Origin: Elusimicrobiota bacterium
GTDB taxonomy: Bacteria; Elusimicrobiota; Elusimicrobia; F11
NCBI GenBank assembly: GCA_046153645.1
Contig: JBJXGI010000024.1
Coordinates: 1 to 19,549 of the forward strand
Direction of reading: 5' to 3'
Length of the DNA stretch: 19,549 nucleotides
The position numbers and the translations under genes were made by a program. The notes beneath the pieces are model-generated. The model saw only the letters and a list, made by a program, of their open reading frames with translations. It had not been told where the DNA came from and ran no database searches. Within the stretch, counting starts at the first letter, position 1, and every line of letters begins with the position of its first letter. This document shows positions 1-17,657 of the stretch, piece after piece.

Positions 1-462
1 CAATATTCAAGTTATGACGATGGTGTTAAATTAGGCGGAAATGTGGGGCAAGTGGGTGGCACTTACGATTATGAAAATCGCAGCTGGAATTATTCATACA
101 CAATTAACCCAAAAACGTTACAGGATAGTTATAACGAAGGTAAACAAAATCGACGCAGAAATGGCTATGGTCCTGAAGGATTTGAGAAACAATTTAAAGT
201 TATTGATTGGCTTGGAACCGTTATGGCTGGGTGGAAAGCATCAGACGCACATGATGAGGGTTATAGAACACTAGGTTCAAATAAAATTACAACTGATTTT
301 GGTTTACTAACAGATATGCTAAGAGGGTCTATCTCAAATATTTCAGAGAAAAATGGAATGTTTCGCACCTCTATTGGATTGATAATTAGCCCTCTATATT
401 ATGGCGCAGTTGCAATAGGTGGAGGACCTGCATTTAAAGCTGGGCATGAGAATGCGCGTTAA
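1..462 (+). CDS. 5'-truncated CDS: C-terminal phospholipase A2-like domain, probably the toxin tip of an upstream polymorphic (RHS-type) toxin
   Basis: Frame 1 is open from base 1 (QYSSYDDGVKLGGNVGQ...) to TAA at 460-462, so the ORF-track start at 43 is internal. Motifs NGYGP (160-174), ASDAHDEGY (His-Asp at 250-255), KITTD and YYGAVAIGG match the order and spacing of secretory PLA2 motifs (NGCGP / C..HD.CY / K..CD / YY.AV..FG). An overlapping lipoprotein gene follows. Confidence 0.7.
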   Translation, partial: QYSSYDDGVKLGGNVGQVGGTYDYENRSWNYSYTINPKTLQDSYNEGKQNRRRNGYGPEGFEKQFKVIDWLGTVMAGWKASDAHDEGYRTLGSNKITTDFGLLTDMLRGSISNISEKNGMFRTSIGLIISPLYYGAVAIGGGPAFKAGHENAR

Positions 463-958
463 AATTTTCTCACTTATTGCTTTGTTCATTGCTTGTTTTT
501 GTGGGTGTATAAGCTTTTTTCATCCTCAACTAAAAAAAGAGTTACTTGCACGTGAAGTCTCAAAAAATCAGATAGACGTCATAAAAAAAACAATATTTAA
601 CGAAGGTTATAAAAAGATAGGAACAGAAGATGGCTTGTGGCAGGGTGCTTTAGACACACAGTATATTAAGGAAATATTAACCGATAAAATAAAAACCACT
701 CTTCTTATATTAATAAGTTTCAAAGAATCGGAAAATTTCAATCACTTTCATAATTTTGGAATCAGTATCTTAAATAACAACCAGTCAAATACGCCTGAAA
801 TCAAAGCCGAAATAAATCGAATGGAAGAAATTCTCTACAATAAACTTCTCGAAATATCTGATAGAAAAAACGTCAAAAGAGGCAATAAGGAAATTTATGC
901 GACTGAGGAAGGTTCCTATTGGCCATGGGCGTGGAAAACTAATTCTCAAAAGAAATGA
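452..958 (+). CDS. Predicted lipoprotein, putative immunity protein for the upstream PLA2-like toxin
   Basis: ATG at 452 (or 446) overlaps the upstream stop. The N-terminus MRVKIFSLIALFIACFCGC has a basic n-region, a hydrophobic h-region and a lipobox-like CGC. The immunity role is inferred from position only. Confidence 0.7.
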   Translation: MRVKIFSLIALFIACFCGCISFFHPQLKKELLAREVSKNQIDVIKKTIFNEGYKKIGTEDGLWQGALDTQYIKEILTDKIKTTLLILISFKESENFNHFHNFGISILNNNQSNTPEIKAEINRMEEILYNKLLEISDRKNVKRGNKEIYATEEGSYWPWAWKTNSQKK

Positions 959-972
959 AAAACCAATCAATA

Positions 973-1011
973 CCCCCCTCCCAACCTCCCCAATGAAAAA
1001 ACTTGGGGAGG
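973..1011 (+). repeat. REP-like palindromic element (C-rich leader + GGRGAGG hairpin family); may also act as a terminator/stabiliser hairpin
   Basis: CCCCCCTCCCAA leader then a 9-bp stem CCTCCCCAA (985-993) / TTGGGGAGG (1003-1011), starting 14 nt after the lipoprotein stop. Same layout as the copy at 18780-18814. Confidence 0.6.
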
Positions 1012-1040
1012 AATTTACATCAAAAACATTTCGGTTCTTA

Positions 1041-1144
1041 CAATTAATTGACACAAGATTGATTTGATTTATCACTTCGTTTCGTAAAGTTTTGTTAATG
1101 AAACGAAGTAAATTAAAAATTATCCCCTCTCAAAGGGGATCTCA
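1041..1144 (+). promoter_or_regulatory. Structured promoter/5'-leader region of the RHS gene
   Basis: Perfect palindrome CAATTAATTG (1041-1050) overlaps TTGACA (1048-1053), but no good -10 box is visible. A 10-bp inverted repeat ACTTCGTTTC/GAAACGAAGT lies at 1074-1083/1100-1109. A 7-bp stem ATCCCCT/AGGGGAT (1122-1128/1134-1140) has the probable RBS in its 3' arm. Confidence 0.45.
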
Positions 1145-4100
1145 ATGAAAACCAGTCGCGCTGTTGTGTATGTTTTATTTTTACTTTCCATTTCTCTCCA
1201 AAATATTTTCTCTGAAGCGCCCTCCAGTTCTAATGTTGCTTCTCAACCCAATGCCAGCGGCGTTAATCCGGGCGGAATTGCTCCCGCCGGATCTGCCGAT
1301 AACTTCCTATTTACAGGGTCTTTTCTCTATTCAGTTCCATTAAGCGTTCCCCCTGGAATCAATGGAATGGAGCCCCAACTTGTTCTGAACTATAACTCAA
1401 GTCAAGGAAATGGATGGGTCGGAACCGGTTGGGAACTCTCTTTGGGAAGTATTCAACGTTCCACAAAAAATGGTGTCCCCAGTTATACAGGAGCCGATAC
1501 TTTTATTCTTTCCATGCAAGGTCAAACAGCTGAACTAACTCAAATACCGGACGGAACTTATCGCTCAAAAAATGAAGGAGCCTTTGCCAAATTCGTGAAA
1601 CAAGGAAATGAATGGGTTATGACAGATAAAATGGGCACGCGATATTTTTTTGGCAGTAGCGTTAATAGTCAAATCACTTTCCCCAACGCAGGAATTTATC
1701 TTTGGGCGCTAAACAAAGTCATCGATCGAAATGGAAATTACATGCTCATTACTTATAACAAACCCCAAGGTGAAGCGCAGATATACCCTGAATCAATACT
1801 TTATACCGGCAATGAAAATACCGGGCGTGAGCCGGTCAATCAAATTTCTTTTGTCACCACGCCTGGGACAGTGCGTGAACTTTCTTATTCCCCAAAATTT
1901 GCCCATCAAATTTCATCACGTTTAAGTTATATTCAAAGCCATGTTAATGGCGTAAAAAGTTGGAAATATGAATTTAGTTACATAACAAGTCAACAAACAA
2001 GCCGCAATTTACTCAAAGAAGTACAAAAGGTGGGCTTAGATGGAGTCACTAAAGTTTCTCTTTTTTCTGCCACTCATAACTTAGAAAATATTCCGTTTAA
2101 CTTACAAAACTATAGATTTGTTGATAATTTAGATGGAGAAGCCGAAACGGTACAAATAATTCCCGCAGATTTTAATGGTGATGGAAAACAAGATTACATT
2201 CAAATAGCCAAAGATAATTCACGACCTCAAAACAACCAAGCCAAAACCCGCTTTTTTTTCTCTAAAGGAAATGGGACATTTGAACAATTTGGTCCCAATC
2301 CCGATCTCGCTTTGACTCTTGTACAAAACCAAATCACTTTGGGAGATTTTAATGGCGACGGAAAAACCGACCTTTTGCGTTTTGATTATAGAGGAAGCCA
2401 AAACGATTTATTAAATCCGATTACTATTTTTACTTCTAATGCAAATGGCAGTTTTACTCAAAGAAATTTTTCACTTTCGTCTCCTTTATATCAACAAAAT
2501 TTAAGTCGTGTTTTGGTTGCTGATTTTAATGGTGATGCTGTCTCAGATATTTTTATTTATAACGCTCAAAGTAGTATGGGACAGGTTTTTCTCATGAAAG
2601 CCAATTTAGAAACCATTGATATGGGAGCCAGATCATTCCCCTATCTTCAAGTTTCCGTTATTGGTGATTTTAATGGAGATGGGAAACAAGATATCGGTTG
2701 TTATAAAACAGGGCAAGGTGGGTCAAAATTATTTTTCTCAAATGGAGATGGGACGTTTCAAGATGCGGGGCAACTTCCTGGCAACTCATGGGGGTTTCAT
2801 GATATGAGAATGTCAGCCATTGATTTAAATAAAGACAATATTTCTGACATCGTTTTATGGGATAACGGTCATGATCATAATGGATCTCCGTCATCCAATA
2901 GTCCTAAAGTTGTGGTTTATTTATCTAAAGGAGACGGGTTTTTCTATAAAACCTCTTATATAACAACCGGTGGCGTTAAATCTCCTGAATACACGTCATT
3001 TATGGAAAGTGGTGATTTTAATGGGGATGGGTTAAATGATCTTATTTTGGCTACACCCAGCAATAACCCCAGTAGCGCCTATGCCAAAATATTTCTAAAT
3101 AAAGGTGAAGGTGTGTTGGAATATTGGGCTGATGCCCCGTGGAACGATTTTAGAACAGAGCAGAATTCAATTGTGGTTGGTGATTTTAACGGAGATACTC
3201 AAGCCGATTTAATGACTTACCGGTGGCGCAATGCTTCTTATGGAGGCCGCCTGTATTTTTCCAACGAAGACTTCCCTGATCTTATTTCTCAAATAAATAA
3301 TGCTATTGGGGGTGGCGTTAAAACAAAATATATTTCGAGTAGTAAATTTTTAAATACCTTCCTCCCTTTTTCGATTCCGGTGGTGAGCGAAATAGCGCAA
3401 TTTGATGGAAGAAGTAACAACCCAAGTGATTGGATAAAAAATTCTTTTTCCTACGAAGGTGGTTTTTTTGATACCACCTTTCGAGAATTTTTAGGGTTTA
3501 AGAAGGTGTATTCAACAGATCAAAAAGGAACCAAAACAGTTTCAACATTCTTACAAAATTTAAATCACCTGGATCGATTGGTTGAAGCCAATGCCATGAA
3601 GGGTCGACTATATAAAAAAGAAATTTACGATTCCTTTGGCCAATTACTGCGCATCAGTGAAACTGTCTGGGAAATGATTAAACCATTTACCAATGTGTAC
3701 TTTGTTAGGACGGGGTATACGCGCAGCAGGAATGTTGAAGTTAATCCCCCCATTGTTGCGCAAGTTGATTTTGCTTATGATGATGTGCCTTACGGTCCAG
3801 GGTTTGGAAACCTTATACAAACCTACAATTCCGGAGATATTTCAATAACAGGAGATGAAATAAAAGAAAATATTGAATATGGCCAAAACCCAACAAAGTA
3901 TATTGTGGGTCTTCCCATTAAAAAAATAATTCGTGGGCCCAGACAAGAAATCTTAGGTGAAACACAATATTTCTATGATGGATCTCAAACATTGGGAACC
4001 ATTACCAAAGGGAACCTGACGCAAGTTAAAAAATACTTAGAAACTCCTTCCTCGCAAAAATGGATTACCTCCAAAACAGAGTTTAACTCAGAAGGATTTG

Positions 4101-7100
4101 TGACGGCGGTGATTGATCCCAAAGGAAATAGAACAGAAACGGAATATGACGCCAAAGGTTTCCCAGTTCTTATTCGAAATCCACATGGGTTTACTGTTAA
4201 AAGCCAATACGACCCGCTCACAGGGCAAGTGTTATCTGACACTGATTTAAACAATCAAACTTCAATTTATAAATATGATTCGATGGGACGACTTGTTAAA
4301 GCAATCGGTCCGTTGGATTCAGAGGCGTTCCCCACCGCTGAATATGATTATCGCCAAGATCTTTGGGGTAACACCGCGCAACAACATATTTTTCTTAAAA
4401 AAAGAGAACGTCACGGAACTTCAGATTCACTTTGGTCTAAAGAGTATTTTGATGGTTTGGGACGCACTTACAAAACAGAAATAGAAGGAAAAGAAGATTC
4501 CATTATCAGTGAAACTCGCTTTAATAATAGAGGGCTTGTTGATTCTCAAAGCATACCACGCTATTCGGCTGACACACATTTACGATGGACCAACAATATC
4601 TATGACGCCTTAGGGCGACTAAAGCAAACCATTTATCCTGATGGGACAAGTGAACAAATCACCTATTTGGGGTATGAAACGCGTTTTAGAGATGCAGACG
4701 GTGTCACACAAACAGCTATCAGTGATTCTGCTGGTAGAACCATTAAGCGATACGAACCAGGCGTTTCAGCCCCCACTCAATTCACTTATGATCCGCTCGG
4801 ACGTTTAACCTTGTTACAAGATTCTCAAGGAAAATTAACTTATTTCACCTATGATTCTCTGGGAAATAAATTATCAATGAAAGACCCCAATTCAGGAACA
4901 TGGGTTTATACTTACGACGATAACAGAAACATGACCTCGCAACTTGATCCAAGAGGCATCAAAATTGGAATGACTTACGATGGGATGAATCGCCTTTTAG
5001 AAAAATCTATTCAATCTAACCCACAGAATATAAACAACCAACCCGTTGGAACAAAATTAGCTGTTTATAACTATGATCATGTTGAACCGGCACGGCCTTA
5101 TTCGAAGGGAAGACTCACCACGGTTCGAGATCCAAATGGCGTGGTTCATTTTTATCATGACTCTTTAGGCCGACTGACCCGTCAAACCAAAGAACTGGGA
5201 ACCGTTACCTATGAAATTAAAAATAATTATGACGCATTAGACCGAGTGAAAGAAATTATTTATCCCAATGATTATTCTGTTAAGTATGAGTATGACAATG
5301 GTGGCAACCTGACTCGGGTTACCAATCAAGACGCTTCGACTGTGTTTGTTTCTTACCCCAATTATTCTGCGGTTGGAAAAGTATTAAACCAAGAACAAAC
5401 CAACGGAAAAATAAAAACCTCTTATTCTTATGAATCTTTCAAACAAAGACTCAAAGAACTGAAAACCGAAAGCTGGGCGACAGGAACACCCCAAAGAATT
5501 AAACACCATCACTACAATTACTATAACGGTGGAAATATTTATCAAATAACCGATCAAATAAATTCGGCCAACTATCAAGCTTTCCTTTATGATCCACTCC
5601 AACGTTTAAAAGAAGCCACTGGATCTTATGGAATTCAAACATTTAGTTATGATTCTCTTGGCAACTTTTTAACTAAAGGAAACAGTAAATATATTTACTC
5701 AGATCCTCGTCATCCTTATGCTGTCACTAAAATCCAAAAACAAATAATTTCTGACAAAGACAACTCAACCTTATTGGCCATGAATTTATCTTCCAGCGAA
5801 AATATTTATAAATTAACAGGTCAAATAAAAGGATCCGCAGTCTCTCTTTCTCAACCTGTGACCATGGTTTTGAAAGGAGAAATTGAACAAGCAGTCACAT
5901 TATCATCAACCACAACGTCTTTTGAATTTAGAGGGGTTGCTGGCGGCCAAAGCATCTCCGTTTCCCCTTTGATGAATAACCGCTCAGCAACTCCCTCAAA
6001 TTATTCTTTCCCTTCTTTTTCAAAAAATGAACCACTGCTTGATTTTAATCTCACCACTTCAAGTGCCATTAACGCTAACACGGCCAAGTCATTTTCTCAT
6101 GGTCAAACAGGTCCTGTTTTTGTTCAAGGGCGTTATGATGAAGCGCTTTCGTTTAATGGTGTGTCAGATATTTTTGCCATTCCCAACACGTCCAACATAA
6201 ACCCTGCGCAATTAACCATAATGGTTCAAATAAAACCCACCAGTTACCCCACACAACAATATGCAACACTCATTTCTAAAAGTAGCAGCAGTTATATAGG
6301 AAATTTAACCAATGGCTATCGCTTGTTTTTATCTCGACAAGGAAAAATATCTTTTGAAATAGGAAAACAGGCAGGAACATCAATTATCGCCTCTTCAACA
6401 AAAGTTATTCCACTACATAAATGGTCTTTTGTTGCAGTTACTTTTGATGGAACAAAACTTCGCATCTATATTGATGGCGTGTATGATTCCGTAGCCAATT
6501 ACACACTCCCATTGATCACCAATACGTTTCCAGTGACGCTGGGTGCCAGTTTAAACGATAAAAAACAAATTGCCGCACAAACATTTTTCCAGGGTGTATT
6601 AGACGAACCCCGCATTCACAGTCGCGCCTGGAGTTTGGCCGAAATTCAAAAAATTCAAAGTGAACTTATTGATACCTACGACTTCTCTTATGATGAAGCA
6701 GGAAACATGGTTTCAAAAGTTTCAAATGAAGCCTCGTGGAATTATCAATTTGATGTGGAAGGTCGGCTTGCCAAGGTTTCTAATAATGGAACTCAAATGG
6801 CTTTGTTTTTATATGACGGTGACGGCGGTCGTGTTCAGAAAACCACAGCGCAAGGCACCACGAAATATATTGGAAAGTTGTTTGAAATCAGACCAGATGG
6901 CAGTTACGTCAATCACATCTTTGGCGCGGGGCAATTGGTGGCCAGTCGTATCCAACCCATTTCAGGGGTTTCGAGTATTCAATATTTTCAAACCGATCAT
7001 CTGGGCAGTATAAGCTCTGTCACCAATGAAAACGGAACAGTGATTCACGAACTTGCGTATGCCCCCTTCGGAGAAAAAATTAAAAACATAGGTACATCTT

Positions 7101-8209
7101 CCCTTAAACATACCTACACTTCCCAAGAAGAAGATCCTGAAATTGACTTGCAATACTATAATGCTCGCTATTACGACCCAGCGTTGGGACGATTTATTAG
7201 TCCAGATGCAATAGTCCCCGATGTTTTTAACCCGCAAACATTAAACCGTTACTCTTATGTCACCAACAACCCGGTGATATTAACGGACCCTGATGGGGAG
7301 TGGGTTTATGCGGCTATCATCATCGGAGCTATTTTAGGTGGTATTCAAGGCGGAATTCAATCAGAGAAGAATGGAAAACCTTGGTATCAAGGTGCGGCAC
7401 AGGGAGCGGTTATAGGCGCAGTTATAGGTGGCTTATCAGCTGGGTATGGTACTGGGATTTCTGAGGCTGTTGGAGGTGGGGTCCCCGGTCTTATTATAGG
7501 GAATTCTGTAGCAGGTGCCTTTTCAGGAGCCGCCTATTCAGGGGCCTACGGTGGAGATATGTGGACTGGTTTTTATTCAGGATTTGTGGGTTCATTTACA
7601 GCAAGCCTCTTAAATCTTCGACCTGGAATTCCCATCATTTCAAATTCAATCGGTGGCGGAGTTGCAGCGGAAGCAGCAGGTGGAAAATTTTCTGAAGGAC
7701 TCAAACAATCAGCCGTGCAAGTTGTTGCGACGTCTATGTTAAATACAATGATCGAAAATGATCCGACCTTCACCAAAGAATCCGCAAAAAATATACCTAA
7801 CAATTCTGCTGTATATCTAGAAAGTACAGGATTACTCCGATTATTATTTTATGCGGCAGGAGATGACTTCAGCCATGTTATTATAAAAGACAAAAATGGA
7901 GCTTGGCATGATACTCATTTGAAAGGTAAATCAGGTGTCGTTGCAATAGATGACACATCTAAAAATGACGGGAGTTATTTTCAAAAAACACTTAACGGCC
8001 GAAGATATAACACCATATCAGCTAAGTTTGATACAAATAAAATAAATCAATATGCTGAAATTAAATACTTGCATCATGGATTACAAGTGTGCACAGTCTA
8101 CGCAAGTCGAGCTAGCAACGGGCAATTATTGGGATTATCGCCTGGCACACAAATGTATAACAATATAGGTTACCGTCCTTCATACCAGGTTTTTTATAAA
8201 CCAAAATAA
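1145..8209 (+). CDS. Giant secreted RHS/YD-repeat polymorphic toxin: signal peptide + SpvB/TcB-like N-terminus + FG-GAP propeller + TcB-mid-like region + RHS core (Ig-like/LamG insert) + Gly-rich linker + papain-like C-terminal domain
   Basis: Sec-like N-terminus MKTSRAVVYVLFLLSISLQNIFS. SpvB-like motif TGSFLYSVPLSVPPGINGMEPQLVLNYNS...GWVGTGW. Seven DxNxD repeats. FREFLGFKKV (TcB-mid-like). Many YDxxGR repeats. RHS-associated core DHLGS...YAPFG...LQYYNARYYDPALGRFISPD...NRYSYVTNNPVILTDPDG. Confidence 0.92.
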   Translation: MKTSRAVVYVLFLLSISLQNIFSEAPSSSNVASQPNASGVNPGGIAPAGSADNFLFTGSFLYSVPLSVPPGINGMEPQLVLNYNSSQGNGWVGTGWELSLGSIQRSTKNGVPSYTGADTFILSMQGQTAELTQIPDGTYRSKNEGAFAKFVKQGNEWVMTDKMGTRYFFGSSVNSQITFPNAGIYLWALNKVIDRNGNYMLITYNKPQGEAQIYPESILYTGNENTGREPVNQISFVTTPGTVRELSYSPKFAHQISSRLSYIQSHVNGVKSWKYEFSYITSQQTSRNLLKEVQKVGLDGVTKVSLFSATHNLENIPFNLQNYRFVDNLDGEAETVQIIPADFNGDGKQDYIQIAKDNSRPQNNQAKTRFFFSKGNGTFEQFGPNPDLALTLVQNQITLGDFNGDGKTDLLRFDYRGSQNDLLNPITIFTSNANGSFTQRNFSLSSPLYQQNLSRVLVADFNGDAVSDIFIYNAQSSMGQVFLMKANLETIDMGARSFPYLQVSVIGDFNGDGKQDIGCYKTGQGGSKLFFSNGDGTFQDAGQLPGNSWGFHDMRMSAIDLNKDNISDIVLWDNGHDHNGSPSSNSPKVVVYLSKGDGFFYKTSYITTGGVKSPEYTSFMESGDFNGDGLNDLILATPSNNPSSAYAKIFLNKGEGVLEYWADAPWNDFRTEQNSIVVGDFNGDTQADLMTYRWRNASYGGRLYFSNEDFPDLISQINNAIGGGVKTKYISSSKFLNTFLPFSIPVVSEIAQFDGRSNNPSDWIKNSFSYEGGFFDTTFREFLGFKKVYSTDQKGTKTVSTFLQNLNHLDRLVEANAMKGRLYKKEIYDSFGQLLRISETVWEMIKPFTNVYFVRTGYTRSRNVEVNPPIVAQVDFAYDDVPYGPGFGNLIQTYNSGDISITGDEIKENIEYGQNPTKYIVGLPIKKIIRGPRQEILGETQYFYDGSQTLGTITKGNLTQVKKYLETPSSQKWITSKTEFNSEGFVTAVIDPKGNRTETEYDAKGFPVLIRNPHGFTVKSQYDPLTGQVLSDTDLNNQTSIYKYDSMGRLVKAIGPLDSEAFPTAEYDYRQDLWGNTAQQHIFLKKRERHGTSDSLWSKEYFDGLGRTYKTEIEGKEDSIISETRFNNRGLVDSQSIPRYSADTHLRWTNNIYDALGRLKQTIYPDGTSEQITYLGYETRFRDADGVTQTAISDSAGRTIKRYEPGVSAPTQFTYDPLGRLTLLQDSQGKLTYFTYDSLGNKLSMKDPNSGTWVYTYDDNRNMTSQLDPRGIKIGMTYDGMNRLLEKSIQSNPQNINNQPVGTKLAVYNYDHVEPARPYSKGRLTTVRDPNGVVHFYHDSLGRLTRQTKELGTVTYEIKNNYDALDRVKEIIYPNDYSVKYEYDNGGNLTRVTNQDASTVFVSYPNYSAVGKVLNQEQTNGKIKTSYSYESFKQRLKELKTESWATGTPQRIKHHHYNYYNGGNIYQITDQINSANYQAFLYDPLQRLKEATGSYGIQTFSYDSLGNFLTKGNSKYIYSDPRHPYAVTKIQKQIISDKDNSTLLAMNLSSSENIYKLTGQIKGSAVSLSQPVTMVLKGEIEQAVTLSSTTTSFEFRGVAGGQSISVSPLMNNRSATPSNYSFPSFSKNEPLLDFNLTTSSAINANTAKSFSHGQTGPVFVQGRYDEALSFNGVSDIFAIPNTSNINPAQLTIMVQIKPTSYPTQQYATLISKSSSSYIGNLTNGYRLFLSRQGKISFEIGKQAGTSIIASSTKVIPLHKWSFVAVTFDGTKLRIYIDGVYDSVANYTLPLITNTFPVTLGASLNDKKQIAAQTFFQGVLDEPRIHSRAWSLAEIQKIQSELIDTYDFSYDEAGNMVSKVSNEASWNYQFDVEGRLAKVSNNGTQMALFLYDGDGGRVQKTTAQGTTKYIGKLFEIRPDGSYVNHIFGAGQLVASRIQPISGVSSIQYFQTDHLGSISSVTNENGTVIHELAYAPFGEKIKNIGTSSLKHTYTSQEEDPEIDLQYYNARYYDPALGRFISPDAIVPDVFNPQTLNRYSYVTNNPVILTDPDGEWVYAAIIIGAILGGIQGGIQSEKNGKPWYQGAAQGAVIGAVIGGLSAGYGTGISEAVGGGVPGLIIGNSVAGAFSGAAYSGAYGGDMWTGFYSGFVGSFTASLLNLRPGIPIISNSIGGGVAAEAAGGKFSEGLKQSAVQVVATSMLNTMIENDPTFTKESAKNIPNNSAVYLESTGLLRLLFYAAGDDFSHVIIKDKNGAWHDTHLKGKSGVVAIDDTSKNDGSYFQKTLNGRRYNTISAKFDTNKINQYAEIKYLHHGLQVCTVYASRASNGQLLGLSPGTQMYNNIGYRPSYQVFYKPK
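2165..3212 (+). repeat. Seven FG-GAP/VCBS-type repeats (probable 7-bladed Ca-binding beta-propeller) within the RHS protein
   Basis: ADFNGDGKQD, GDFNGDGKTD, ADFNGDAVSD, GDFNGDGKQD, IDLNKDNISD, GDFNGDGLND and GDFNGDTQAD, most followed by a xxGxGxF-type turn (SKGNGTF, SNANGSF, SNGDGTF, SKGDGFF). Confidence 0.85.
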
Positions 8210-8223
8210 AAACAGAGGTCAAT

Positions 8224-8808
8224 ATGAAAATAACTCAATACTTAATTCTAATACCATTACTTTTTACCGGTTGTGTGAGTCGTCATCATTTGGGAGTAAA
8301 ACAATTTGATCCTACTCATGTTGCTTGTCATTCAATTGGAACCAAAGTTATTTCACAATCGAAGGAATTTGAAGAGAAAGTCACAAAACTAGTTTCCATA
8401 AATGACTTAAATGCGCTCAAATCTCATTTCTCAAAAAAACTAAAAGAAAAACTATCAGATAAAGATTTGGAAACGATTAAGGCTAAAATTAACTCTTATC
8501 AATTTTCGGGAGTGATAAAACCAAAAAACCTTATTATTAGAAGCATCAACATAGGACCAGAAAATTTTTGGGATCCATTTACTTCCTATGACTTTGTTGT
8601 GGGATCATATTTATTAGAAGGAAAAACGAAAGGAAATTTAAGTATATGCTTTGTCAAAAAAGATGAGAAATACGATTTGGTTGGAATGTTGTTAACGCCA
8701 ATCAATAAAAAACGCGCTTCCGATGAAAATACTTTTAAGTATCTTTTTTTAGACTATATTGATTCAGAAGAATCAATATTTTGTCCCTGCTTAATTTTTA
8801 TGGGCTAA
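8224..8808 (+). CDS. Predicted lipoprotein, putative immunity protein for the RHS C-terminal domain
   Basis: RBS AGAGGT at 8214-8219. MKITQYLILIPLLFTGC is a clear lipoprotein signal. The gene starts 14 nt after the toxin stop. Its TAA overlaps the convergent miaB TAG. Confidence 0.75.
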   Translation: MKITQYLILIPLLFTGCVSRHHLGVKQFDPTHVACHSIGTKVISQSKEFEEKVTKLVSINDLNALKSHFSKKLKEKLSDKDLETIKAKINSYQFSGVIKPKNLIIRSINIGPENFWDPFTSYDFVVGSYLLEGKTKGNLSICFVKKDEKYDLVGMLLTPINKKRASDENTFKYLFLDYIDSEESIFCPCLIFMG

Positions 8809-10094
8809 ACCACTTCCCCATGCAGTTCGCGGGAATAGGTATCAATTACCTTGGCTTGGACTATGTCGCCTGGTTTGAGGGTGGGGTTTTTGATTCTCAT
8901 TCGCCAGGCGCCGCGGGTTTTTCCTCGAAATACACCATCTCCCTTGTCTTCTTCAATCAAAACCTCTTGAACGCTGCCAATGAGCTTTTTGGCATTGGCT
9001 TGACCTTGAGAATCAGTTAATTCCAGCAAAAGATTGACCCGGCGTTCTTTTTCTTCGTTAGGCACATCATCAGGAAATTTATCAGCTGATTCTGTCCCAG
9101 GGCGAGGTGAATATTTAAAACAATAGGCTGAATCAAAACCTGCTTCTTTAACCACGCTTAAGGTTTCTTCAAAATCAGCTATGGTTTCACCTGGAAAACC
9201 AACAATAATGTCACTTGAAATAACGATATTTGGAATGGCCTTTCGAAGAGCCAATACTCCTTTCATATAGGAGGAGCGCGTATAATTTCGTTTCATTTTT
9301 TTAAGCTGTGAGTCAGACCCGGATTGAACCGGCAAATGCATATATTCCGGCACATTGGGGGTTTCAGCCATGGCTTGAATCAAGTTTTCATTTAAATAAT
9401 AAGGGTGGGGGCTAATAAACCGAAGTCTTTGTAAACCATTTATTTTAGCAACATCTCTAAGAAGTTCTGGGAAGAAATAATTGTCACTGGGTGCTTGCTG
9501 GGGCTTATAAGAATTAACGGTTTGACCCAGTAGCCAAATTTCTTTGGCCCCCTCTGTCACGCGCGCTTCGGTTTCTTGCAAAATAGTTTCAACAGGTCGG
9601 TACACCTCACGCCCTCGAACAGATGGAACAATACAGTAAGTACAGGAGTAATTACACCCTCGCATAATGGTCACGTATTGGACAACAGAGTTGTTAGGCG
9701 TGGTTTCAACTGGTTCAGGAATAAGACGATCTTCAACCAAAGGTTTCAGCGATTTATCAAGTTCATAAGGGAACTCTTCAATATCTTTAGCTCCCACGAT
9801 AAGGTCGATATGCGGAAACTTTCGTTTCATTTCAACTTTGGCGCGCTCTGCGGCACACCCCGTGACAATCAAAAGACCATTGGGGTTATTTAATTTCCAC
9901 TCTTTCATGCGGCCAATAAAAGACATGGCTTTATGCTCGGCCAACTCTCGCACTGTACAGGTGTTAACCAAAACAGCATCCGCTTCCTCTAGGTTTTGGG
10001 TTTGGGCAAACCCTCGTTCTTTAAAATGGCGCCCCATTTCATCAGAGTCAGCAAAATTCATCTGACAGCCAAAGGTTTGTGTGAATAGTTTCAT
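8805..10094 (-). CDS. miaB: tRNA-2-methylthio-N6-dimethylallyladenosine synthase (radical SAM methylthiotransferase)
   Basis: TFGCQMN..DS, NTCTVRE.AE.K and VTGC (UPF0004 domain); radical SAM motif GCNYSCTYC; HLPVQSGSD, SDIIVGFPGET, YSPRPGT; C-terminal TRAM-like region. Confidence 0.95.
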   Translation of the reverse strand: MKLFTQTFGCQMNFADSDEMGRHFKERGFAQTQNLEEADAVLVNTCTVRELAEHKAMSFIGRMKEWKLNNPNGLLIVTGCAAERAKVEMKRKFPHIDLIVGAKDIEEFPYELDKSLKPLVEDRLIPEPVETTPNNSVVQYVTIMRGCNYSCTYCIVPSVRGREVYRPVETILQETEARVTEGAKEIWLLGQTVNSYKPQQAPSDNYFFPELLRDVAKINGLQRLRFISPHPYYLNENLIQAMAETPNVPEYMHLPVQSGSDSQLKKMKRNYTRSSYMKGVLALRKAIPNIVISSDIIVGFPGETIADFEETLSVVKEAGFDSAYCFKYSPRPGTESADKFPDDVPNEEKERRVNLLLELTDSQGQANAKKLIGSVQEVLIEEDKGDGVFRGKTRGAWRMRIKNPTLKPGDIVQAKVIDTYSRELHGEVV

Positions 10095-10273
10095 ATTTTA
10101 GGAGAGGTTTTATTTTGATGCGCTCGGCCAGACCAATAGAGCTTGAGAATAGAAGAGAGCCATTCGAATTTGAGAGCAACAGACCAATCTTTATAGTTTT
10201 TTTGAGCTTCAGCATCAAAATACTGAACCATGCGCAAAGGTTCTCGCTCTTTGTCATCCCATTCTTCTTTCAT
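10091..10273 (-). CDS. Small 60-aa hypothetical protein, translationally coupled partner of the nucleotidyltransferase
   Basis: ATGA overlaps at both ends (10270-10273 with the NTase stop, 10091-10094 with the miaB start). An upstream AAGGAG RBS lies in the NTase 3' end. Confidence 0.75.
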   Translation of the reverse strand: MKEEWDDKEREPLRMVQYFDAEAQKNYKDWSVALKFEWLSSILKLYWSGRAHQNKTSPKI

Positions 10274-10764
10274 TTATTCTCCTTCAAGATGTGTTCTAAC
10301 CCAATAATGTCCTGAAGGTCTTGTGGACGGCCTGCTTTCTTTTTTAAGGTGATAAGATCTGGTATTTGCATAACATTGATAGGAATCGTTCCTAACAGAG
10401 CAACTTTTTTTCGGGAATAGGCATCAGAAAAAGGAATTTGTTCTTCAACAAAAACGTCTATTAGCTCATCTAATTTCTGCGGGTGATATAAGGAAAATAC
10501 TTTCATTCCTTTCTCTGTAACCCAACTTTTTCTTTTTTCTGGATCAGAAAAATCATCAATAGGCACGGGGGCTTTAGGTCGGTATCCTTTACTTTTTATG
10601 AGATCAAGAAAGGTATGAAGATTTTTTTCATCTAGCGCAACCATGAGATCTAAATCCGCCGTAGCACGAATAAAACCATGGAGAATAACCGCAACCCCTC
10701 CCACAACAAGATATCTGACACCTTTCATGTCAAGATCTTTAAATAGTTCTTCGTAAAAAGTCAT
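10270..10764 (-). CDS. Pol-beta-superfamily nucleotidyltransferase (AbiEii/DUF6036-like)
   Basis: YLVVGGVAVILHGFIRATADLDL (GG...R.T.D.D), a distal IDVF strand, and C-terminal LITLKKKAGRPQDLQDI. Confidence 0.85.
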   Translation of the reverse strand: MTFYEELFKDLDMKGVRYLVVGGVAVILHGFIRATADLDLMVALDEKNLHTFLDLIKSKGYRPKAPVPIDDFSDPEKRKSWVTEKGMKVFSLYHPQKLDELIDVFVEEQIPFSDAYSRKKVALLGTIPINVMQIPDLITLKKKAGRPQDLQDIIGLEHILKENK

Positions 10765-10769
10765 TTTTT

Positions 10770-11399
10770 TTAAGGTTTTAATGTGACGTAACTGTTTTTC
10801 TTTTTATCCCAGTTAATATACCAGCCGTTTCGTTTATAGCGGCCCTTGGTGAGTTTAGCATCTACAAAACTGACATAGTCATCTTTAAAGTTATACACTT
10901 CGCCTTGGCGGTTTATATCGAAAGTGCCGCCATTTTTCTTGTGGCCATTAAAAATTAGAAGTTCAACCAAAGGGCCCAATTTTCCTTCTTGCGTGATGAC
11001 CAAAAATGCGTAATCGCGTTTGGTGTCTCCATTAAAATCTCCCCACGCCACGGAAGGATGAACTCCAATTAAACGAGAATTATAATAACCCAACATTTCA
11101 GAGTTATATTCACTGTCTTTGGGAATTCTATAACCAGGAGATTCACTTTGAAGTGCCGTTTCTATATCATCCGGTAAAATAAGTGTGCGCGTTCCATCTG
11201 CTGCTGTTTCAACAACAGGAACATTGACTTTCTTTGTTTGGGAATAAAGATACGGACAAGAGAAAAAGAAAAAAAGAACTAACCAATTCGTCATTCCCGA
11301 ATGTCTTTCTCGGGAATCTAAATCTTTTTTTTTAAAAAGTAAGTGAGACCCCCGATTACGAATTTCGGGGATGACGGAGTAAAAATTTTCGTTAGCCAT
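10770..11399 (-). CDS. Exported hypothetical protein with a single FG-GAP-like Ca-binding motif; N-terminus contains a palindromic element
   Basis: ATG lies 2 nt after the tkt stop. Hydrophobic WLVLFFFFSCPYLYS|Q resembles a signal peptide h/c-region. WGDFNGDTKRDYAFL motif. An alternative start at 11294 (MTNWLV...) lies inside the repeat. Confidence 0.75.
   Translation of the reverse strand: MANENFYSVIPEIRNRGSHLLFKKKDLDSRERHSGMTNWLVLFFFFSCPYLYSQTKKVNVPVVETAADGTRTLILPDDIETALQSESPGYRIPKDSEYNSEMLGYYNSRLIGVHPSVAWGDFNGDTKRDYAFLVITQEGKLGPLVELLIFNGHKKNGGTFDINRQGEVYNFKDDYVSFVDAKLTKGRYKRNGWYINWDKKKNSYVTLKP
11289..11376. mobile_element. 88-bp palindromic MITE/RPE-like element (GTCATTCCCG...CGGGRATGAC family)
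   Basis: 13-bp terminal inverted repeats CGTCATTCCCGAA / TTCGGGGATGACG (12/13 match). Two internal hairpins: ATTCCCGA-9nt-TCGGGAAT and CCCCGA-9nt-TCGGGG. Confidence 0.75.
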
Positions 11400-11401
11400 G
11401 A

Positions 11402-13447
11402 TTATTGAACTGTTTCCTTTAATTGATCGAGAACCCGCTTAGAAGTATTTACTACATTATCGACTGAAAAGCCGAATTTTTCCATAAGAATATTTGCCGG
11501 AGCTGAGGCACCAAAAGTTTTCATTCCAATAATGGCACCTTCTGTTCCGACATAGCGTTCCCATCCAAATCCTGACAAACATTCGATACTTACGCGGGCT
11601 TTGATATTTTTAGGAAGAACAGATTCCCGGTAAGCGGCCTCTTGTTGTTCAAACAACTCCCATGAAGGGAGTGAAACAACTCTTGTTGCAATTCCTTCAT
11701 TTTCAAGTTTTGTTTGTGCCGATAATGCCAATGAAACCTCGGACCCCGTCGCAATTAAAATGAGATCTGGCTTTCCAGAGTTAGCGTCGGTCAAAATATA
11801 TCCACCCTTTTCAACTTGTCCGGCAAGTGGATATTTTGATTTATGAAGGACGGGTAAGTTTTGACGAGTTAAAACCAAGAGGGTTGGCCCATGACGATGT
11901 TCAATGGCAAATTTCCACGCAGCGGCTGTTTCAATGGCGTCAGCGGGACGAATTGTCACTACATTGGGAATGGCTCTCATGTGAGCCAATTGTTCAATGG
12001 GTTGATGCGTGGGACCGTCTTCTCCCAAACCAATTGAATCATGAGTAAGAACATAAATCATTTGTAGTTTCATGAGGGCGGACAATCGCATCGCTCCTTT
12101 CATGTAATCAGTAAAATTAAAAAATGTCCCCCCATAGGGAATTAATTTTTTTGAAAGTGACATGCCATTCATCGCGGCTGCCATAGCATGTTCGCGCACG
12201 CCGAAATGCAGGTTTCGTCCTGCTGATTTTTTATTAAAAGAAGAGATTCCTTTCATGTTTGTATTATTTGATGGGGCTAAATCCGCGGATCCGCCTAATA
12301 GTTCTGGGAAAATGGGTGCAATGGCGTTAATCACTTTACCAGAAGCCGCTCTCGTGGCCATTTTTTCTTCAGCGGCAAAGTCAGGCAATTTGGCTTCCCA
12401 CCCTTGAGGAAGTTTTTGAGAATCTAAACGGTCCCAAAGTTTTTTTAATTCAGGATTTTTTATTGACCATTCTTTAAAACGTTTATTCCATTCTTCTTCG
12501 CATTTTTCACCTTTCAAAATAGATTTGGAATAAAATTGCGACACTTCTTCTGGAATATAAAAATCAGATTCTGACTGCCATCCGAGATTTTTCTTCGTTA
12601 AAGCAATTTCTTCTTTGCCAAGAGGGCTGCCATGAACTTCACCCGTATTGGCCTTATTCGGGCTCCCATAACCAATGGTGGTTTGAATAGCGATTAGCGT
12701 TGGTTTGGTCGTTTCTTTTTGAGCGGATTGAATAGCGGCTTTCAAAAGGTCTAAGTTATGACCATCTTTTACTTTTAAAACATTCCAACCTTGTGATTTG
12801 AAACGAGCGGGAACATCTTCGCTAAAAGAAACATCTGTATTTCCTTCAATGGAAATATGGTTATCATCATAAAGAATAATAATTTGTCCAAGCCCCAAAT
12901 GTCCTGCCAGTGATGCCGCTTCAGAAGAAATTCCCTCCATCATGCAACCGTCGCCAGCAAAAACATAAATACGGTGATCAAGCAATGCTTTGCCTTTGGT
13001 TGGAAAAAGTGAATTTAAATATTTTTGCCCCATGGCTATTCCAACGGCTGTTGCAATTCCTTGACCTAAAGGACCAGTGGTTGTTTCAACACCAGGTGTA
13101 TCACCCAACTCAGGATGCCCAGGTGTTTGACTATGCCACTGACGGAAATTTTTTAATTGTTCTAAAGGTAAATCATATCCCGTTAAATGGAGCATGGAAT
13201 ACAAAAGCATCGATCCATGCCCATTGGATAAAATGAATCGATCGCGGTTAACCCAATTGGGATTTTTAGGATTAAATTTTAAAAACTGGCTCCAAAGAAC
13301 GTGCGCTATGGATGCCATCCCCATCGGCATTCCGGGGTGTCCTGAGTTGGCTTTTTCAACACCATCAACTGATAAAAACCGAATCGTATTTACACATAAC
13401 TCAGGTAAAGATGGTTTTGAAAATTTATTTTTTTTTGCTACGGCCAT
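11402..13447 (-). CDS. tkt: Transketolase
   Basis: SGHPGMPMG, RDRFILSNGHGSMLLY, TPGHPE, TTGPLGQG, TPP motif GDGCMMEG...DDN, FGVREHAM, THDSIGLGEDGPTHQPIEQ. RBS AAGGAG at 13454-13459 (-). Confidence 0.98.
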   Translation of the reverse strand: MAVAKKNKFSKPSLPELCVNTIRFLSVDGVEKANSGHPGMPMGMASIAHVLWSQFLKFNPKNPNWVNRDRFILSNGHGSMLLYSMLHLTGYDLPLEQLKNFRQWHSQTPGHPELGDTPGVETTTGPLGQGIATAVGIAMGQKYLNSLFPTKGKALLDHRIYVFAGDGCMMEGISSEAASLAGHLGLGQIIILYDDNHISIEGNTDVSFSEDVPARFKSQGWNVLKVKDGHNLDLLKAAIQSAQKETTKPTLIAIQTTIGYGSPNKANTGEVHGSPLGKEEIALTKKNLGWQSESDFYIPEEVSQFYSKSILKGEKCEEEWNKRFKEWSIKNPELKKLWDRLDSQKLPQGWEAKLPDFAAEEKMATRAASGKVINAIAPIFPELLGGSADLAPSNNTNMKGISSFNKKSAGRNLHFGVREHAMAAAMNGMSLSKKLIPYGGTFFNFTDYMKGAMRLSALMKLQMIYVLTHDSIGLGEDGPTHQPIEQLAHMRAIPNVVTIRPADAIETAAAWKFAIEHRHGPTLLVLTRQNLPVLHKSKYPLAGQVEKGGYILTDANSGKPDLILIATGSEVSLALSAQTKLENEGIATRVVSLPSWELFEQQEAAYRESVLPKNIKARVSIECLSGFGWERYVGTEGAIIGMKTFGASAPANILMEKFGFSVDNVVNTSKRVLDQLKETVQ

Positions 13448-13470
13448 GGAAGGCTCCTTCGATAAAATTT

Positions 13471-13487
13471 GTCATTCGGGGGTGACG
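13471..13487. repeat. Collapsed remnant of the GTCATTCC palindromic element
   Basis: GTCATTCGGGGGTGACG equals the left end (GTCATTC) fused to the right end (TTCGGGGRTGACG) of the 11289-11376 element. Confidence 0.45.
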
Positions 13488-13492
13488 ATATT

Positions 13493-13522
13493 ATTCTACG
13501 TTAAATTCAGTACGTGTGTTAA
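13493..13522 (-). promoter_or_regulatory. Candidate sigma70 promoter for tkt
   Basis: On the - strand TTAACA (13522-13517), an 18-nt spacer, then TAGAAT (13498-13493), in the largest intergenic gap of the - strand block. Confidence 0.35.
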
Positions 13523-14169
13523 GACAATGCTTGAAGAAATTCATCATTGGATTGCATCTGCAAATAAGGGTTGGATTTTTTTTCTTTTTCTAGGGTTTGA
13601 TTGGGAATAAAACCGTAATCATGTCCAGGCCAAAACACAAGATGAGAAGGAAGTGTTGCTATCTTCTGAAGACTTTTAAACAATGTTGGCCCATCACCGC
13701 CTGGTAAATCGGCTCGACCACATCCGCCCATAAACAAAGTGTCCCCAGTAATTAAATTATCCCCCACTTGAATACATTGGGAACCCGGTGTGTGTCCTGG
13801 CGTGTGCAGAAAAGTAAGTTCAGTTTCTCCAATTTTTACTTTTTCTCCACCTTCTAAACCCTTTACTGTTTTCCCCAACGAAGCGACAATGGAGGTTCCA
13901 CTTTTAGAATAGGTAATTTCTGCTTTATTCGCGTAAACAGGAATATCATGTTGGACTAAGATTTCTTCAATGGCATTGGTGTGATCGTAATGGGCATGAG
14001 TGATAATCATTCCGGTCAGTTTAAAACCAAGTTGATTTACTTCTTTTTGAAAAGTGTCTGGCGCCCAGGCAGGGTCAACAATAAAAGCTTCTTTGGTTTG
14101 GTCGTCTCCAATGAGATAACCAAAGTTTTGCATAGGGCCGATTTCAAATTGTTTGAAAATCAGTGCCAT
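13519..14169 (-). CDS. MBL-fold metallo-hydrolase (glyoxalase II-like)
   Basis: THAHYDH, HTPGHTPGS, TGDTLF..GCGR.D, PGHDY. Confidence 0.92.
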   Translation of the reverse strand: MALIFKQFEIGPMQNFGYLIGDDQTKEAFIVDPAWAPDTFQKEVNQLGFKLTGMIITHAHYDHTNAIEEILVQHDIPVYANKAEITYSKSGTSIVASLGKTVKGLEGGEKVKIGETELTFLHTPGHTPGSQCIQVGDNLITGDTLFMGGCGRADLPGGDGPTLFKSLQKIATLPSHLVFWPGHDYGFIPNQTLEKEKKSNPYLQMQSNDEFLQALS

Positions 14170-14174
14170 GAAAT

Positions 14175-15467
14175 CTACAAACCAACTCTTTTGAAAATTG
14201 TATTCACATGTCTAAAATGATTTGAAGTGTCAAAACATTGTAATAATTCTTTCTTGGATAAATATGAACCAATTCGAGTGTCAGCTTCAATGAGTTTTCT
14301 GAACGATTTTCCTTGAGTCCAGGCTTCTAGTGCATTTTTTTGAACCATCTCATATCCTTTCTGACGTTCCAGTCCTTTCCTCACCAGAGCCAACATGATT
14401 TTTTCCGAAGCCAAGAATTCTTCTGTTTTGGCTAAGTTGGCTTTCATTCGTTCTGGATAAACTTGGAGATTTTGGAGAATTCCGTTCATTCTATTTAAAG
14501 CATAATCTGCGAGAATGGTTGAATCAGGCAAGATCACTCGTTCAACAGATGAGTGAGAAATATCTCTTTCATGCCACAATGCCACATTTTCGATCCCGGC
14601 CAATGCATTGGTACGAAGAAGTCGGGCCAAGCCGCAAATGTTTTCACATCCGATAGGATTTCGCTTATGTGGCATGGCGCTCGATCCTTTTTGTCCTTTG
14701 GAAAATGGTTCTTCGGCTTCTAATACTTCAGTTCGTTGAAGGTGTCGAATTTCGGTTGCAATTCTTTCTAACATGGCACCGATAAGAGCCAAGGTATTAA
14801 GGAAATGTGCGTGCCGATCTCTGGGGATAACTTGAGTTCCTACAGGTTCGGCCTGAAGTCCCAATTTTTTACAGACGTAAGTTTCTAAATCGGGGTCGTT
14901 ATGGGCAAAGGTCCCAACTGCACCCGAAAGTTTTCCGATTGCAATCATTTTGCGAGCTTCAGTTAATCGTTGTAAATTTCGCTTGGCTTCTGATAACCAC
15001 CCAGCCACTTTAATTCCAAAGGTAATAGGTTCAGCATGAACACCGTGAGATCTTCCCACCATAGGGACATTTTTATATTTGAGCGCCAAATCTTTTATCG
15101 TGGAAATGAGCATTTTTAGATCGGCATCTAAAATATTCCCCGCTTCTTTTATTTGCACGGATAAACCAGTGTCAACAACATCACTTGAGGTGAGCCCCAT
15201 GTGTAAAAATCGTGATTCAGGACCAATGACCTCTTCCATATGAGTTAAGAACGCAATAATGTCGTGTTTCGTCACCATTTCAATTTCAAGAATTCTGGCG
15301 GGGTTGATTCGAGCTTTAGAACGAATCACTTGAATGGCTTTCTTCGGCACTTTCCCTTTTAAAGACAACGCTTCGGCGGCCAATACTTCTACTTCAAACC
15401 AGATTTTATATTTACGTTCTTCCGTCCAGATGGAAGACATTACTTCACGTGAGTATCGAGGAATCAC
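14175..15467 (-). CDS. purB: Adenylosuccinate lyase
   Basis: MIPRYSR start (GTG), HDIIAF, HMGLTSSD, GRSHGVHAEP, the fumarate-lyase signature GSSAMPHKRNP, and WHERDISHSSVER. Confidence 0.97.
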   Translation of the reverse strand: MIPRYSREVMSSIWTEERKYKIWFEVEVLAAEALSLKGKVPKKAIQVIRSKARINPARILEIEMVTKHDIIAFLTHMEEVIGPESRFLHMGLTSSDVVDTGLSVQIKEAGNILDADLKMLISTIKDLALKYKNVPMVGRSHGVHAEPITFGIKVAGWLSEAKRNLQRLTEARKMIAIGKLSGAVGTFAHNDPDLETYVCKKLGLQAEPVGTQVIPRDRHAHFLNTLALIGAMLERIATEIRHLQRTEVLEAEEPFSKGQKGSSAMPHKRNPIGCENICGLARLLRTNALAGIENVALWHERDISHSSVERVILPDSTILADYALNRMNGILQNLQVYPERMKANLAKTEEFLASEKIMLALVRKGLERQKGYEMVQKNALEAWTQGKSFRKLIEADTRIGSYLSKKELLQCFDTSNHFRHVNTIFKRVGL

Positions 15468-17647: not shown

Positions 17648-17657
17648 ATTTTTCTTT

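Follow-up and report, generated by a model that had tools for sequence, protein, structure and literature searches.

The first 8,808 nucleotides of the window, by which we mean the whole stretch of 19,549 nucleotides analysed, raise the question of what kind of toxin system is encoded by two successive pairs of a toxin-like gene and a lipoprotein gene, and of whether that system is new. The window is the entire contig C82 of genome G000 (2.63 Mb, 105 contigs, 99.7% complete). According to the open reading frame list and the translations, positions 1-8808 are filled by four genes on the same strand, all found at the positions given in the preliminary description, which read them as two Sec-exported, TcB/TcC-like RHS toxins in tandem, each with an immunity lipoprotein, forming an undescribed system that attacks the cell envelope. 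The observed layout was borne out, whereas the interpretation stands only in part: the toxin-immunity pairing, the polymorphic tips and the independence from T6SS hold, and the second large toxin and the novelty of the architecture do not.

The large SpvB-RHS gene, the tips and their lipoproteins

The large gene (1145-8209, forward strand) encodes 2,354 aa, divided into a TcB/TcC-like full-length carrier part (1145-7297) and a tip of 303 aa (7298-8209) that would be released. The carrier comprises an SpvB domain (residues 57-208; PF03534, E 2e-22), FG-GAP repeats (PF13517, E 6.5e-32), a TcdB_toxin_midN domain (675-800; PF12256, E 3.7e-17) and an RHS/YD shell, in which the RHS repeats precede a LamG insert (1673-1835, about nucleotides 6161-6649) absent from the preliminary description; the RHS core (1972-2051) follows the insert, and the DPxG motif ends the carrier at position 7297. 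The core retains Arg2008 and the two Asp residues of the autoprotease, which match those of YenC2 and of a bacterial teneurin-like protein. By motif and hydropathy reading, the N-terminus is signal-peptide-like, being basic and then hydrophobic (hydropathy 3.0), with a non-canonical cleavage motif. The first 1,550 aa and the core are common to all seven full-length relatives (28-37% and 38-51% identity, respectively); the last 150 aa are shared by none of them, so the tips are polymorphic.

SpvB, an integrin-like propeller and RHS also make up the TcdB/TcaC class in Table 1 of Zhang et al. 2012 (PMC3482391), where they follow a signal peptide, for which the N-terminus of the window protein is a candidate; the class likewise has a variable tip, downstream immunity and, among its listed tips, papain-like ones. 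The large gene is an ordinary member of this known polymorphic-toxin class, as the table presents it, and is therefore not new; the Sec-exported SpvB-RHS architecture, which had been thought undescribed, already stands in the TcdB/TcaC row. The window gene differs in its LamG insert, and the phylum list of that row is without Elusimicrobia.

The tip of the large protein begins with a Gly/Ala-rich helical pre-toxin region of about 150 aa, which is followed by a domain containing His2244 and Cys2316. These two residues align with the tip of P0168 in a weak pairwise match (E 5.5e-4), no database homologues were found for the last 150 aa, and a single-sequence fold model was poor (pLDDT 45) and gave no match in a fold search. 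The His...Cys domain bears a weak resemblance to permuted NlpC/P60. Tox-Act1, a permuted NlpC/P60 phospholipase toxin, shares the His-before-Cys order, acts in the periplasm and has membrane-associated immunity (PMC12994826, as far as consulted); it differs in being delivered by T6SS, and it serves here as a functional precedent rather than as a demonstrated homologue. Neither this papain-like tip nor the PLA2-like tip of the upstream gene has a Pfam match, and both labels are motif-level only.

Putative immunity lipoprotein 1 (452-958, forward strand; 168 aa, lipobox F-C-G-C19) has a probable ATG at 452, which overlaps the stop codon of the upstream ORF by 11 nt; putative immunity lipoprotein 2 (8224-8808, forward strand; 194 aa, lipobox F-T-G-C17), assigned by its position, starts 14 nt behind the large gene. 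Both lipoboxes were read from motif and hydropathy. The two proteins do not match each other, in agreement with the preliminary description. A Pfam search assigned no family to lipoprotein 1, and the language-model neighbours of lipoprotein 2 are DUF5104 proteins (score 0.93), which is a lead only. In genome G194, the gene directly behind a homologous tip (L094:8596-9489) matches lipoprotein 1 at 41% and holds two tandem domain copies. Because the tip-lipoprotein pair recurs there, the assignment of lipoprotein 1 as the cognate of the upstream tip is supported, and with it the toxin-immunity logic. A lipobox or hydrophobic N-terminus in 28 of the 31 downstream genes of related loci (of the remaining three, two are soluble and one is uncalled) agrees with an envelope location of the putative immunity proteins. 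The lipoproteins are predicted to neutralise their cognate tips, and the motifs suggest that the tips attack the envelope, with lipids as the probable targets of the PLA2-like and the permuted-NlpC/P60-like domains.

The proposed independence from T6SS is supported: no PAAR, VgrG or TcA gene is present among the window ORFs, and PAAR (PF05488), VipB (PF05943) and VgrG (TIGR03361) were found in none of the five genomes used for secretion-profile searches (G000, G003, G008, G381 and G394), with positive controls. The TcA profiles PF03538 and PF18276 also matched none of the five, but their controls were likewise silent. No T9SS family is among the domain matches of the large protein. G000 has three secretins, one of them in a GspD/J/E cluster on C85 (GspD-type secretin, T2SSJ, T2SSE), and the toxin loci of Neorhizobium, G008, G032 and G035 have gsp genes at a distance of 0.3-6 kb; T2SS is the export route that we infer for the toxins.

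The upstream gene and shell-less mini-Rhs toxins

The upstream ORF (1-462, forward strand) is open at its 5' end and encodes the C-terminal 153 aa of a toxin, namely a predicted barrel end followed by a helical domain with a PLA2-like motif. Its matches assign it, as the C-terminal half, to a mini-Rhs toxin (hereafter, mini), a protein of about 330 aa that has no shell, and not to a second large toxin. The intact mini P0182 (332 aa) matches the window ORF at 52% and, at 57%, a 3'-open mini at the end of contig C48 of the same genome (G000:C48:19430-19832), whose hydrophobic leader is joined directly to the latter half of the RHS core; when both pieces are aligned on P0182, a gap of about 43 residues is left. 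The window ORF also matches P0009 (45%), and an ordinary orphan in G194 matches both the C48 piece (58%) and the window ORF (43%). G000 contains a second mini of 309 aa (C22:6979-7908), with a hydrophobic leader, a half-core and a lipoprotein gene behind it. The leader ends in A-x-A in C48, C22 and P0182, and in P0182 and the C48 half only about 20 residues precede the core Arg, with no YD-repeat shell. From N- to C-terminus, such a mini comprises a predicted signal peptide, the half-core with the RYY...DPxG autoprotease, a barrel predicted to be of the outer-membrane type, and the PLA2-like motif. The preliminary description had itself held that an upstream gene lacking an RHS or trafficking region would refute its reading, and the family of the upstream gene is without the RHS shell. 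A classical orphan Rhs module was also considered for this gene and was rejected on account of the hydrophobic leader in C48, C22 and P0182.

The ends of C48 and C82 do not overlap, and the join is not bridged by the run contigs of one study. We nevertheless lean towards the view that the window ORF and the C48 piece are the same gene. A 67-nt element (1037-1103, forward strand) that precedes the large gene is identical at 65 of 67 positions (blastn) to C48:19369-19435, where it precedes the mini and includes its start codon; this element is likely a shared promoter or a recombination scar. One run contig departs from the window at 1103 into the start of the C48 mini, and the run contigs of the same study contain variant tips diverging at 149 and 153, as well as a junction at which an end like that of lipoprotein 1 meets position 1. 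Because of these variant tips and this junction, the window ORF may be either the C48 gene or the last of several tandem paralogues.

The model of P0182 has a pLDDT of 47 overall and of 55-75 in the strand region. Its residues 61-217 are nearest to outer-membrane barrels (Omp33, Z 10.1, rmsd 4.1, 132 aligned; PcoB, Z 10.0; KdgM, Z 9.8), and Foldseek returned nothing for the mini model at E 0.001 or better, barrels appearing only in the wide search. The model predicts a 12-strand beta-barrel region before the helical PLA2-motif domain, whose helices (pLDDT under 50) bear G-Y-G-P, H-D-x-x-Y and a later Asp. In the window ORF, the motif lies at aa 55-58 (G-Y-G-P), 84-88 (H-D-x-x-Y) and 99 (D), and we take it to resemble the Cys-less parvovirus-type PLA2 motif. 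Compared with the Tox-PLA2 signature of Zhang 2012 (DxC[ST], CxxHxxxYxN, C), the window tip has HDxxY there and the cysteines are missing.

Minis are a recurrent design. Among 253 parsed proteins of a survey of 260 (120 listed of 322 from one search, together with the best 150 of another), 32 are signal-peptide minis; a further one recognised by eye and four taken from loci bring the set to 37. All 37 keep the Arg, the Asp at +13 and the DPxG Asp, which correspond in an alignment to YenC2 649-689 and to Arg2103 of the teneurin-like protein, whose autoprotease residues are given as Arg2103, Asp2116 and Asp2140 in the part of PMC13018210 consulted. Minis pass from their signal-peptide-like leader directly into the RHS core, and do so at a few fixed registers: 25 of the 37 begin at the core Arg and the other 12 after a spacer of about 10 residues. 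Ala occupies position -3 in 17 of 25 minis versus 1 of 122 in the comparison, an analysis whose filter had already removed canonical leaders. The DNA pattern for A-[QH]-A-R-Y-Y-D-x3-G-R-F, sought in 185,579 genomes, gave 49 loci with 47 distinct matches, one of which is a signal-peptide mini, the others being canonical cores; this pattern therefore misses most minis, and the presence of A-Q-A in canonical cores as well weakens the argument from -3 Ala. The minis would be processed by signal peptidase and by self-cleavage at DPxG. The same tips occur on minis, on orphans and on full-length genes. Clustering by tip divides the 34 complete minis into 16 groups, and 21 of these minis have a tip in common with ordinary Rhs proteins or orphans (153 tips compared). 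Because G194 carries the upstream tip of the window on an ordinary orphan core, this tip family is not always a mini.

Across 401 genomes of the phylum, leader-matching minis occur, among the matches listed, at eight loci in five genomes, five of these loci having built the query; two further, divergent minis are present in G204 and G365. Rhs genes on C63 were left out of consideration because, judged by eye, they may not belong to G000.

A linked, predicted enzyme of family PF13369 and split shells in rhizobia

The minis are linked to a gene encoding PF13369 (SirB1-like Transglut_core2) and TPR, the C48 copy of which scores 79.7 bits against a cut-off of 23.5. This gene directly precedes the mini in G003, G381, G394 (twice), G204 and G365 and lies one gene away in G008; in G000, it is on C48, 12 kb from the mini, and is followed only by a lipoprotein gene. 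The start of the mini tightly overlaps the stop codon of the enzyme gene. The enzyme clade (at least 56% identity) is found in exactly the five of 401 genomes with leader-matching signal-peptide minis, while any enzyme match occurs in 17 of the 401; no core fragment was seen by eye at the nine most distant enzyme loci. Residues of a Cys-His-Asp/Glu triad are present, the Cys occurring in 13 of 13 secreted-type copies versus none of four housekeeping SirB1 proteins and in all 79 parsable homologues (of 101), and the N-terminus is hydrophobic in 95 of the 101. Named homologues include Nitrospirota and Thermodesulfovibrionales; viral contigs gave no homologue. The gene product is a predicted secreted Cys enzyme, which likely matures the minis or couples them to a carrier.

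The function of PF13369 is stated to be unknown in the part of PMC10318531 consulted, where the family is discussed in the acetyltransferase section. Section 19 of PMC3482391 has only inactive transglutaminase domains fused to RHS toxins. These domains and the linked enzyme belong to the same fold family and are both linked with RHS toxins (PMC10318531; PMC3482391, parts consulted), but the fused domains are without catalytic residues, whereas the linked clade is stand-alone and of the secreted type and retains both Cys and His.

When metagenomes were scanned with the enzyme as sole query, 80 of 90 confirmed loci were retained, of which 13 had no downstream room, leaving 67. Immediately behind the enzyme gene lies a signal-peptide mini in 49 of the 67 by script (37 of 55 after de-duplication) and in 55 of the 67 with six added by eye; the other 12 comprise four core-less signal-peptide toxins, one full-length, window-like SpvB-RHS gene (L185), one leaderless core and six unrelated genes. 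With those four metagenome loci and four genome loci, the enzyme also precedes signal-peptide toxins without an RHS core. In the 39 of 43 loci that could be parsed, the predicted mature start is at the Arg in 16 (plus two within two residues), 14 residues before it in 11 (plus two mis-called) and one residue after it in eight; the Arg is missing in eight of the 39. Five metagenome loci contain several tandem minis.

Cultured rhizobia provide a further arrangement. The enzyme search matched eight plasmids, seven of which were viewed: four rhizobial plasmids, all with IS or Tn3 neighbours, have a mini behind the enzyme, in one case interrupted by a stop, and three weak sphingomonad matches have no Rhs neighbour. 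In Neorhizobium petrolearium OS53 (NZ_CP123001.1), a full T2SS cluster comes first, and behind it lie, in this order, a TcdB-type shell of 1,855 aa, the enzyme, a mini and a small gene; Rhizobium lentis BLR27 p2 has the same order of shell, enzyme, mini and downstream gene without the T2SS cluster. The downstream gene is a putative immunity gene, and in both strains it makes up a single operon with shell, enzyme and mini. Both shells (1,830-1,855 aa) are without DPxG and tip and leave the core after the Arg and the first Asp, at an identical four-residue motif; they are 49% identical overall, and their shared end motif has synonymous codon differences. Their minis take up the core eight residues behind the Arg and contain DPxG, so that only shell and mini together hold all three autoprotease residues. 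Another strain has a full-length twin that is 93% identical to the truncated shell.

A coupling model and its alternatives

We consider that the enzyme may couple the core-fragment N-terminus of the mini to a carrier in the periplasm before export by T2SS, a reading to which we give slightly less than an even chance. The large toxin, the mini, the enzyme and the carrier would enter the periplasm through Sec, and signal peptidase would expose the core fragment of the mini. The PF13369 enzyme would then join the fragment to the carrier by transpeptidation, or dock it there, the carrier being most plausibly an RHS shell whose plug is thereby restored. The shell-cargo complex would leave through T2SS, DPxG self-cleavage would release the tip, and the lipoproteins would shield the envelope of the producer. 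Counted for this coupling were the autoprotease residues of all 37 minis, the co-occurrence of enzyme and mini, the conserved Cys of the enzyme, the split operons of rhizobia and the nearby T2SS genes. The stronger form, in which a periplasmic PF13369 transpeptidase widely ligates separately exported cassettes onto RHS shells or other surface carriers, seems rather doubtful to us; if true, tips would be swapped at the protein level and not by DNA recombination, and PF13369 would acquire its first function.

The main competitor of coupling is a maturation independent of shells, in which the free N-terminal core remnant serves as a tag that the enzyme acylates, trims or chaperones, the shells are bystanders and the minis reach the outside on vesicles or by themselves, as small substrates of T2SS. 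Both autoprotease Asp residues are retained although the RHS core fragment normally packs inside the shell, and the rhizobial minis are without the tag and the catalytic Arg while the adjacent shell retains the Arg; both facts argue against it. In its favour, genome G003 (100% complete) contains, besides the enzyme and a mini, neither SpvB nor a further RHS core, a shell lies directly upstream at none of 50 metagenomic loci with at least 600 nt upstream, the non-RHS partners open with a similar aromatic-acidic motif (by eye), and PF13369 is discussed among acetyltransferases in the section of PMC10318531 mentioned above. No shell-only gene was recognised in G000 or G003, where there are only giant proteins with one weak YD match each. 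Because of the shell-less G003, the 0 of 50 upstream shells, the non-RHS partners, the 12 kb between enzyme gene and mini in G000 and a G000 large protein that already owns core and tip, we place coupling no higher than stated, and shell-independent maturation, somewhat unlikely in itself, next to it.

The remaining explanations are less probable. The minis could be orphan cassettes that stay silent and store DNA for displacing the C-terminus of the full-length gene, signal peptide and enzyme being incidental; the 21 of 34 tips shared with ordinary Rhs, the common 67-nt upstream element, the tandem-array-like variant tips and lipoprotein-end joint of the run contigs and the known displacement arrays (PMC8125069, part consulted) would fit, but leaders that end at fixed core registers in unrelated lineages, the tight overlap with the enzyme stop codon and the location of minis, which precede full-length genes, are distant from them or occur where the genome has none, make this improbable. 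Slightly more improbable still is that enzyme and signal peptide form a mobile cassette, selfish or of the addiction type, which enters Rhs cores and picks up a tip and an immunity gene, truncated shells being its casualties. The full-length twin of a truncated shell, the varying upstream contexts, the IS or Tn3 neighbours on all four rhizobial plasmids and half-cores that resemble the Rhs cores of the host lineage by eye are what such a cassette would leave, but no recombinase is consistently linked, and the two rhizobial shells are intact, with the same end motif and synonymous differences. Highly improbable is the original picture of two full-length TcB/TcC-like Sec toxins in tandem. The unbridged C48-C82 join and the upstream tip on an ordinary orphan core in G194 leave it some room, but in the 99.7% complete genome SpvB and a full shell each occur just once, the corresponding 5' half on C48 is a signal peptide with a half-core, and the class is already published (PMC3482391, Table 1).

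Returning to the minis and their enzyme, several known systems come close to them. Orphan Rhs modules and C-terminal displacement arrays (PMC8125069, part consulted) also combine a core fragment, a tip and an immunity gene and exchange tips, but are without a secretion signal and located downstream; minis have their own signal-peptide-like leader at fixed core registers and lie upstream or alone, behind a dedicated enzyme gene. Tc B/C and bacterial teneurin-like proteins (PDB 4igl, 9pt5; PMC13018210) share the RHS shell, the Arg-Asp-Asp autoprotease and DPxG release, and the latter are described there as Sec-exported accessory toxins with immunity genes; here, the split falls inside the core plug and not between TcB and TcC, and the cargo has its own signal peptide. 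Neisseria MafA-MafB resembles the unit in that a short polymorphic toxin exported through Sec has a secreted partner, always the same, encoded directly upstream, but MafA is a lipoprotein anchor confined to Neisseria, whereas minis have a predicted Cys enzyme as partner and an RHS core remnant as leader (PMC3482391, part consulted). The TcdB/TcaC passages of the same paper mention neither a shell-less signal-peptide half-core cassette nor a separate active PF13369 partner, and no description of either was found in full-text searches covering the main texts of openly readable papers, 10.1101/2021.10.19.465003 among them. Shell-less minis with their linked enzyme are thus apparently a widespread and undescribed kind of toxin, and the module, a variation on how polymorphic toxins are trafficked, has an appreciable chance of working by a mechanism that is new.

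The three-gene unit of a secreted Cys enzyme, a half-core toxin and an immunity gene recurs in Elusimicrobia, in matches named Nitrospirota or Thermodesulfovibrionales and in rhizobia. Rhs toxins are thought to need a shell and to change their tips by recombination with silent orphans. The recurrence of the unit points to an unrecognised route of maturation and delivery for interbacterial toxins and gives PF13369 a testable role, and the rhizobial operons make the unit of shell, enzyme and mini directly testable in strains that are harmless. Many short 'RHS core domain proteins' that have been filed as fragments may be active.

Variant enzymes, cassettes and toxin partners

The gene of the predicted secreted, Cys-bearing PF13369 (SirB1-like) enzyme also precedes partners other than the usual mini, a small Rhs toxin comprising a predicted signal peptide, an RHS half-core ending in DPxG and a tip. 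At four loci (L127:1741-7523, L128:5946-7349, L129:489-2606 and L130:2955-6403), it precedes polymorphic toxins of a second family, which have a signal peptide but no RHS core, occur as tandem copies and share an uncharacterised N-terminal domain; their mature start resembles the RHS core motif, and their tips differ, one being a DUF900 hydrolase. A longer form of the enzyme (560-660 aa) precedes minis lacking the catalytic Arg (L249-L263), which are frequently present three per array. Intermediate cassettes consisting of a signal peptide, approximately 240 aa of RHS repeats, the core and a tip were found in genome G394 (L093:49-1683 and L097:8685-10205). By eye, a CRISPR-like repeat array with cas2/cas1-like genes lies immediately 5' of an enzyme-mini pair in the same genome (L087:9959-12000). 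In Mesorhizobium sp. L-2-11, a Tn3 transposase adjoins an enzyme-mini-immunity unit (L264:3408-5675) on two plasmids, and the mini is broken by an in-frame stop immediately 3' of the cleavage motif.

The remaining window and other large proteins

Several run contigs, assembled from the sequencing runs of one study, begin matching the window at 975 and depart from it at 1015-1016; these entry and exit points suggest that 975-1015, just 3' of lipoprotein 1, is a short repeated element. The stop of lipoprotein 2 overlaps by 4 nt a minus-strand miaB-like gene in a housekeeping block (8805-19441, minus strand) of miaB-, transketolase-, purB/N/M- and pyrE/F/D-like genes, which includes a DUF6036 nucleotidyltransferase (10270-10764).

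Dozens of secreted proteins of 1,200-10,000 aa, spread over many contigs of the window's genome, share an N-terminal 'E-x-x-x-W-x-E-R-R/K'-like motif and terminate in Ala. Contig C63 (4,253 bp), possibly foreign to this genome bin, carries two Rhs fragments that by eye are different in style and Bacteroidetes-like. In genome G003, one open frame spans 18,143 aa and gives a weak YD match.

A possible signalling neighbourhood

Around the enzyme and mini in the window's genome (contig C48, 7933-18032), G003 (L033:11044-17999) and G035 (L130), Pfam matches identified several membrane sensor kinases and response regulators, a transporter of the FadL type and a protein with a fused HMG-CoA reductase. 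This block is conserved between the window's genome and G003; it looks like a small-molecule signalling module, which might control the toxins.
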